DNA of 64,000 bases from assembly GCF_057098645.1 (NCBI RefSeq), contig NZ_CM169472.1; one strand, written 5' to 3'. Position numbers: made by a program. Below, piece after piece: positions 6,001 to 6,716 of the stretch. Position 1 is the first letter of the stretch. Each line of letters starts with the position of its first letter.

Positions 6001-6716
6001 TTTGATAACCGGCATCACCAGAGTACGCGCAGCGTTGTTTTTCGCCTGTCAAGAGGCGACGACAATCTTATAGTGATGATTGATTAGCGCATTGATTGTC
6101 CACTTACATTTTTCCAGCCCTACCGCAGCTTCGGGGGTGTCCTTGATGACACAATCCGGGTGTTCATTGGTGGCGTCAGCCTTCAGCCACAACGTAACGT
6201 CGAGAGGATCTTTTTCTTTATATTCCAGAACAATAAAATTATTGCGCTCAACAAAGTCATGGCGGCTGCCCATCAGCGAGTGAGCTGCTTTGACGTTATC
6301 GCTATTCAGTTGATCTTTTAGCGGAACACCGAACTGATAGTTAATCGTGGCGTTAACGCTAAGATCACTGTTATCTCCGGTACCTGCTTTATAATCCGTC
6401 CCGACCGTCAGTAACGGAACGGGTTGATAGTTCACGCCAAGCGTCACTGCATAGGGATCTTTTTCTAAATTATCGGTGCCGATGAGCGCCACTTCGTCAC
6501 CATAATATTGCTCGAAAACAATTTTGCTCCCCAGCTGAGGATAAGAAGGTAGCCAGGCTTCCGCCCGGACATCCCAGCCACGTGCGGGTCGTTCTAAATA
6601 GAAATCAAAATCTTTTGAATCTTTCCACTCTGAAAGCGGATGATAATAGTTACCAGAAAATTTTAAATAATCCGTCCAGGCTTCTGTTCCTAAGGAAGGT
6701 GCGAACAAGTTCCTGA

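Follow-up and report, generated by a model that had tools for sequence, protein, structure and literature searches.

The 64,000-nucleotide (nt) stretch of contig NZ_CM169472.1 analysed here (NCBI RefSeq assembly GCF_057098645.1; referred to as the window) carries on its minus strand sinH (iatB), the gene of an intimin-like inverse autotransporter, and the frame of this gene is broken by a premature TGA at codon 400. The stop is best explained as a fixed loss-of-function point mutation, W400*, in a sinH that is decaying, and we put the probability of this explanation at about 0.93. A sense codon is found at the homologous position in orthologues, homology continues in frame on both sides of the stop, and the base call is reproduced in eight public contigs, as is expected of a nonsense pseudogene.

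The premature stop and its ancestral codon

The plus strand reads TCA at 6049–6051, and direct reading of the coding strand gives TGA at 6051..6049:

6049..6051, minus strand: TGA in place of the ancestral TGG (Trp400) at sinH codon 400, a premature stop; the change is at window position 6049, where the plus strand has T and relatives have C.

Minus-strand translation across the stop gives ...INHHYKIVVAS*QAKNNAARTLVMPVIKENTLTEGNNNHWNLV..., or in short form ...HHYKIVVAS*QAKNNAARTLVMPVIKENTL..., and over a longer distance ...CKWTINALINHHYKIVVAS*QAKNNAARTLVMPVIKENTLTEGNNNHWNLVLPAW... Past the TGA, exactly 326 sense codons precede the natural sinH stop at 5070..5068, and a GTG at 6018 and an ATG at 6015 are present in this downstream part. 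In-silico excision of two insertion sequences (IS) that interrupt the gene, together with one copy of each target duplication, restores a 2181-nt sinH open reading frame (ORF) beginning with the ATG at 9225. The repaired frame of 726 codons is continuous and contains a single stop, the TGA at codon 400. The nonsense change is the sole substitution that separates it from sinH of E. coli O145 RM9872, and around the TGA the stop base is the single difference within the gene; the homology on its two sides is no coincidence. The original prediction, made from the sequence alone, had placed an in-frame TGA at 6049–6051 with homologous protein on both flanks, a downstream part of 326 codons and possible starts at GTG 6018 and ATG 6015; all of these agree with the reading given here.

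Alignment with orthologues, proposed earlier as a means of choosing among TGG, CGA and TGC as the ancestral codon, yields TGG. Six E. coli sinH genes were compared directly (O145 RM9872, O145:H28 RM12761, TUM13936, ABU 83972, 2/0 and XJ5.2), and codon 400 is TGG in all six, five of which are intact. Each of the five intact genes is annotated as a single sinH coding sequence (CDS), with products of 726 aa (RM12761 and TUM13936), 725 aa (ABU 83972) and 724 aa (2/0 and XJ5.2). Trp400 is furthermore invariant across an alignment of 15 SinH sequences with 85–100% identity. The mutation thus reads as a G-to-A transition at the third position of codon 400, equivalent to C-to-T at plus-strand base 6049. 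With Trp restored, the repaired SinH exactly matches an intact SinH of 726 aa that 338 public contigs encode, a complete O145 genome among them; the allele of the immediate ancestor was therefore intact. The claim that the TGA is a point nonsense change rather than a gene boundary is upheld by these comparisons, and among the orthologues no pair of genes was found to meet at this codon.

The mutant base is also found outside the window. The exact 315-aa ORF that starts at ATG 6015 is present in public assemblies, from which 10 contigs were retrieved. Eight of them carry the same TGA, seven in NCBI genome assemblies (GCA_015676305.1, GCA_032490215.1, GCA_015676215.1, GCA_032490195.1, GCA_029361185.1, GCA_029357705.1 and GCA_015673775.1) and one in a metagenome scaffold of the European Nucleotide Archive (ERZ28574757). 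The other two are O145-like and have TGG at codon 400 together with other lesions. Since the TGA occurs in eight independent contigs, it is fixed in a lineage, and a base-call error is ruled out. A 61-nt probe over the stop matched 39 complete RefSeq E. coli genomes; each of the 39 has a single mismatch to the window (98.4% identity), and the TGA was found in none of them. The O145 genomes inspected directly at the probe site have TGG.

Domain position of the stop and the insertion elements

The repaired protein scores 1486.5 bits against the NCBIfam equivalog NF033423 (inverse_SinH; cutoff 999), with residues 1–726 aligned to model positions 1–730, and when the region is compared by megablast with 5,426 complete E. 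coli genomes, the search returns 'intimin-like inverse autotransporter SinH' followed by 'SinI family autotransporter-associated protein'. A beta-barrel and an immunoglobulin (Ig)-like passenger are both present, and the gene lies in the expected locus, der/yfgJ-sinH-sinI-large adhesin-xseA. The frame is interrupted at three sites, however (IS1 at codons 26–29, an IS5-family element at codons 186–187 and the TGA at codon 400), which makes the locus a pseudogene of sinH and not a functional member of the family.

The stop lies close to the junction of barrel and passenger. The Pfam domain PF11924 (IAT_beta) covers aa 64–337 of the repaired SinH (E = 5.5e-105), and SinH 102–344 is the part to which the constructs of barrel plus linker crystallised for invasin (4E1T) and intimin (4E1S) align. 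The passenger has been described on the basis of AlphaFold as three Ig-like domains at residues 337–724, the third at 602–724 (PMC9937491). From Pfam, the alignment of PDB sequences and this published model, from which the Ig-like fold is also taken, codon 400 is placed some 56–63 residues into the passenger, within Ig-like domain 1. The original prediction had put the stop between the barrel and the passenger; this holds for its vicinity to the junction but not for its exact position, since the Pfam barrel ends at aa 337 and the constructs at aa 344. An AlphaFold2 model of full-length SinH built from the 15-sequence alignment gave a mean predicted local distance difference test (pLDDT) score of 34 and a predicted template modelling (pTM) score of 0.23, and was not used for the placement.

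The pseudogene, its two insertions and the fragments between them are arranged as follows.

5068..9225, minus strand: whole sinH pseudogene, from ATG 9225 to the stop at 5070..5068; a 2181-nt gene plus 1,976 nt of IS and target duplications.
8373..9140, plus strand: IS1, 768 bp, with insA/insB on the plus strand; inserted in sinH nt 77–85, codons 26–29.
6694..7889, plus strand: IS5-family element, parsed here as 1,196 bp; inserted in sinH nt 556–559, codons 186–187, within the beta-barrel.
9141..9225, minus strand: 5′ end of sinH, codons 1–28, the signal-peptide region, cut off by IS1.
7889..8372, minus strand: sinH fragment from IS1 to IS5, about codons 26–186, which holds an in-frame G7 homopolymer.
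6052..6693, minus strand: sinH fragment from IS5 to the TGA, about codons 186–399, comprising the latter half of the barrel, the linker and ~55 residues at the start of the passenger.
5068..6048, minus strand: sinH fragment after the TGA, codons 401–726 and the stop, with the rest of Ig-like domain 1 and domains 2 and 3.

Both insertions are bounded by target duplications, a perfect 9 bp for IS1 (AGCAAAGCG on the coding strand, at 9141–9149 and 8364–8372) and 4 bp for the IS5-family element (TTAG on the coding strand, at 7890–7893 and 6690–6693). The latter encodes a 326-aa transposase on the plus strand (6762–7742), and NCBIfam models match the transposases of both elements (IS5 family, 367 bits; IS1 InsA and InsB). 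When the window is aligned to the O145 RM9872 locus, sinH appears as three colinear blocks with the two insertions between them.

All eight TGA-bearing contigs start in, or contain, IS1 at the same sinH site, and all eight join window position 7889 directly to 6694, that is, without IS5. Since contigs with the TGA and IS1 lack IS5, the IS5-family element came last and is the latest lesion, so far private to the strain of the window. Neither the IS5 junction nor the IS1 junction is present in any of the 5,426 complete RefSeq E. coli genomes. The original prediction had also held the TGA to be independent of the IS insertions. This is borne out for IS5; as to IS1, the mechanism is a separate one, the TGA being a substitution 1,115 nt deeper into sinH, yet IS1 accompanies it in every TGA contig sampled. 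In one of these contigs, a 132-kb contig of GCA_015676305.1 (positions 1–2330), what borders the sinH IS1 on its other side is wcaM, from the colanic acid gene cluster, instead of the 5′ end of sinH; this suggests that IS1 mediated an inversion or rearrangement, or else that the assembly is a chimera joined at IS1.

The consequences of the three lesions can be proposed from the domain arrangement. In a gene free of other lesions, W400* would truncate the product after some 55 residues of the first Ig-like domain; signal peptide, periplasmic segment, barrel and linker would be kept, and the adhesive surface domains lost. IS1 at codons 26–29 parts the rest of sinH from its promoter, start codon and signal-peptide region, and the IS5-family element at codons 186–187 cuts the gene again, inside the barrel. 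Because IS1 and IS5 already break sinH, the TGA would be without further phenotypic effect today. We infer that, whichever codon stands at position 400, no functional SinH is likely to be made in the strain of the window. No observation speaks against the decay of sinH. As to the order of IS1 and the TGA, exact look-ups for the 399-aa product of a TGA-only allele and for the 802-aa fusion ORF of an IS1-only allele gave no match, an outcome that hinges on which start codons the gene callers chose.

Alternative explanations

Instead of neutral decay, the lesions could have arisen through positive selection for silencing an immunogenic SinH, with an early and leaky TGA that was reinforced later by IS1. 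SinH is a protective antigen in extraintestinal pathogenic E. coli (ExPEC) (PMC9937491). Both IS of the 64-kb window sit in the 2.2 kb of sinH, which is the only disrupted gene among the 41 compared, and its one substitution relative to O145 RM9872 is a nonsense change. However, once a gene is dead, further hits are no longer selectable and accumulate where they are tolerated, and most of the adjoining genes have housekeeping roles (der, bamB, hisS, ispG, isc), so that insertions into them would be removed by selection. Such reasoning is also post hoc, built on three events in one lineage, and the frameshift that seems to mark a parallel loss in O145 cannot be relied on, as two assemblies of RM9872 disagree. 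We regard selection as unlikely, though it is the strongest of the alternatives. Decay of sinH accounts for the same pattern: three lesions are expected for a dispensable gene amid essential housekeeping genes, and the later hits are neutral because the first had already killed sinH.

A narrower form of this idea, and a distinctly less probable one, concerns an ancestor free of IS. Among the stop codons of E. coli, UGA is the leakiest; Trp is its usual misreading, and the leakiness varies with conditions such as temperature and pH (PMC11126739). Because Trp-to-UGA is the one nonsense change that readthrough by the near-cognate tRNA-Trp reverts to the wild-type protein, W400* may have acted in such an ancestor as a low-level, condition-dependent hypomorph, and IS1 may have been selected later to silence the immunogenic adhesin fully. 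If true, this would represent a stepwise, selection-driven loss of an antigen in an O145:H28-related lineage.

It has further been considered that the TGA is recoded, by selenocysteine or programmed readthrough, and that full-length protein is made on purpose. Misreading of UGA as Trp would indeed recreate the wild-type residue at codon 400, but readthrough of this kind could have mattered only in the hypothetical ancestor without IS. The predicted fold of the 70 nt that begin with the stop is less stable than those of shuffled sequences (minimum free energy −9.8 kcal/mol, z = +1.26), and an Rfam search gave no family match except one chance-level hit. The ancestral residue is Trp, neither Cys nor selenocysteine. 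Folding, Rfam and the homologues thus reveal neither a stem-loop of the selenocysteine insertion sequence type 3′ of the UGA nor a Cys or selenocysteine at the homologous position. The TGA is absent from all of the complete genomes matched by the probe, and therefore nothing is conserved. The upstream IS1 and IS5 also sever the frame from its start codon and signal peptide. Recoding is very improbable.

Equally improbable is a split gene in which the 315/316-codon ORF (ATG 6015 or GTG 6018) is expressed alone as a free passenger protein. In related assemblies, gene callers do predict the ATG-initiated 315-aa form of this ORF, which in the window lies within 5068..6048, and the product of the adjoining sinI, which has no barrel, shares a homologous C-terminus with SinH. 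Against this, the 25 nt upstream of ATG 6015 (AAACAACGCTGCGCGTACTCTGGTG) contain no Shine-Dalgarno-like motif of the GGAG or AGGA type, in accord with the earlier remark that none was obvious. Close upstream of this ATG no promoter-like site is found on the coding strand, the nearest being at 6667–6640; over the region around the stop, the promoter and terminator scan gave nothing above background, promoter-like sites being no commoner than in shuffles. A hydrophobic core like that of a signal peptide is missing from the N-terminus of the ORF, MPVIKENTLTEGNNNHWNLVLPAWQYSSDP, and the product therefore could not leave the cytoplasm. The start of the ORF would also sit in the middle of Ig-like domain 1, and the intact orthologues compared directly are single genes of 724–726 aa rather than a natural two-gene arrangement. 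It is unlikely, judging from the sequence, that the downstream ORF functions alone.

Least probable is an error of sequencing or assembly in the source genome over a true TGG, for although only one base separates the window from very close relatives, the identical base in eight independently assembled public contigs and the location of the site outside any homopolymer effectively refute it already.

Relation to E. coli O145:H28 and meaning of the decay

The window is colinear with the genome of E. coli O145:H28 and 99.94–99.98% identical to it, and by megablast the sinH region is 99.9% identical to O145:H28 strains. Relative to RM9872 there are 23 substitutions in about 62 kb, the other differences being the two IS and a 5.2-kb hcaB-yphD segment lost by RM9872. 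Relative to RM12761 there are 12 substitutions in about 42 kb, and otherwise the two IS and a sinI that is 72 bp shorter in RM12761. The window allele of sinH differs from the intact O145 allele only by W400*, and from that of RM12761 also by N170D. In contrast to the window, the O145:H28 genomes have neither the TGA nor either IS. The two IS copies in sinH are the only ones in the 64 kb, all 40 other CDS compared (sinI among them) are intact, and a separate check of the downstream adhesin met no stop in its first 1,250 codons. A Shigella origin, suspected from IS1 and gene decay, was rejected on account of the near-identity to O145:H28, the presence of only two IS in 64 kb and the 40 other intact CDS. 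A literature search on sinH, Shigella and pseudogenes returned irrelevant results only, mostly matches to author names.

Some O145:H28 sinH genes, such as that of RM9872, annotated as 'frameshifted', have instead a G7-to-G8 homopolymer change, due either to real slippage or to an artefact of sequencing. The G7 tract, at sinH nt ~494–500 (C7 on the plus strand, 7942–7948), is a variable site and is in frame in the window. It is kept exactly in 34 of the 48 complete genomes with this allele family; an extra G occurs in at least 11 O145:H28 genomes, which the Prokaryotic Genome Annotation Pipeline (PGAP) calls 'frameshifted', and RM12761 has an adjacent A-to-G change (N170D). Two assemblies of the same strain conflict, RM9872 CP028379.1 with G8 and RM9872-C1 CP024659.1 with G7. 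The 'pseudogene' call for O145 sinH may thus reflect a sequencing artefact or slippage, and we do not accept G7-to-G8 as a solid parallel loss of sinH in O145.

The gene adjoining sinH is intact:

4047..5012, minus strand: sinI, 321 aa, 55 bp downstream of sinH; the same protein sequence as in O145 RM9872.

The C-terminal ~115 residues of SinH (aa ~610–723, window 5068–5420) are homologous to SinI aa ~212–321 (window 4047–4380); SinH matches the partner_SinI model with E = 1.7e-22, and SinI matches the SinH model with E = 1.9e-19. This homology suggests that the barrel-less SinI shares a putative receptor-binding domain with SinH. In RM12761, the sinI product has 297 aa, 321 aa being the length in the window and in RM9872 (window ~4184–4245; retrieved RM12761 sequence 4119–5012), and the 72-bp shortening looks like an in-frame, repeat-associated deletion.

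Elsewhere, the window retains the 5.2-kb segment at 45143–50352, from the hcaB 3′ end through the yphD region, which a deletion has removed from O145 RM9872; the annotation of RM9872 gives hcaB as partial. The alpha-2-macroglobulin gene yfhM (21155–26116) accounts for 6 of the 23 substitutions relative to RM9872. Four of these are non-synonymous (L531P, S1128P, I1212K and L1290P), three of them to proline. Only two differences in yfhM are left in the comparison with RM12761, and most of the variation is therefore within O145:H28.

SinH/IatB of E. coli and of the Salmonella CS54 island resembles the product of the window gene in its full match to NF033423, its PF11924 domain and its 85–100% identity, and the order der-yfgJ-sinH-sinI-large adhesin-xseA is the known synteny. 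A functional sinH encodes a surface adhesin and biofilm factor of 724–726 aa (PMC9937491, PMC6714894), whereas the gene in the window carries W400*, IS1 and IS5. The lesions appear to have built up while selection was relaxed or negative, in a lineage very near to E. coli O145:H28.

Decay of adhesin genes through IS and nonsense changes is commonplace in E. coli and Shigella, as in the IS-interrupted intimin-like eaeH of K-12. The case of sinH is similar in that a non-essential surface adhesin has received several independent lesions while its neighbours are intact. It differs from eaeH in the gene concerned, and from the genome-wide IS expansion of the Shigella type in that the window has only two IS in 64 kb, both in sinH. 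The sinH pseudogene is therefore a case of ordinary gene decay in a gene already described, with nothing mechanistically new. The three or four ORF fragments at the locus should be annotated as one sinH pseudogene and not as separate genes. The shared IS1 and W400* and the private IS5 are handy lineage markers for a sub-clade close to enterohaemorrhagic E. coli (EHEC) O145:H28. SinH is in development as an ExPEC vaccine antigen (PMC9937491), and natural knock-out alleles such as this one bear on surveys of antigen coverage.
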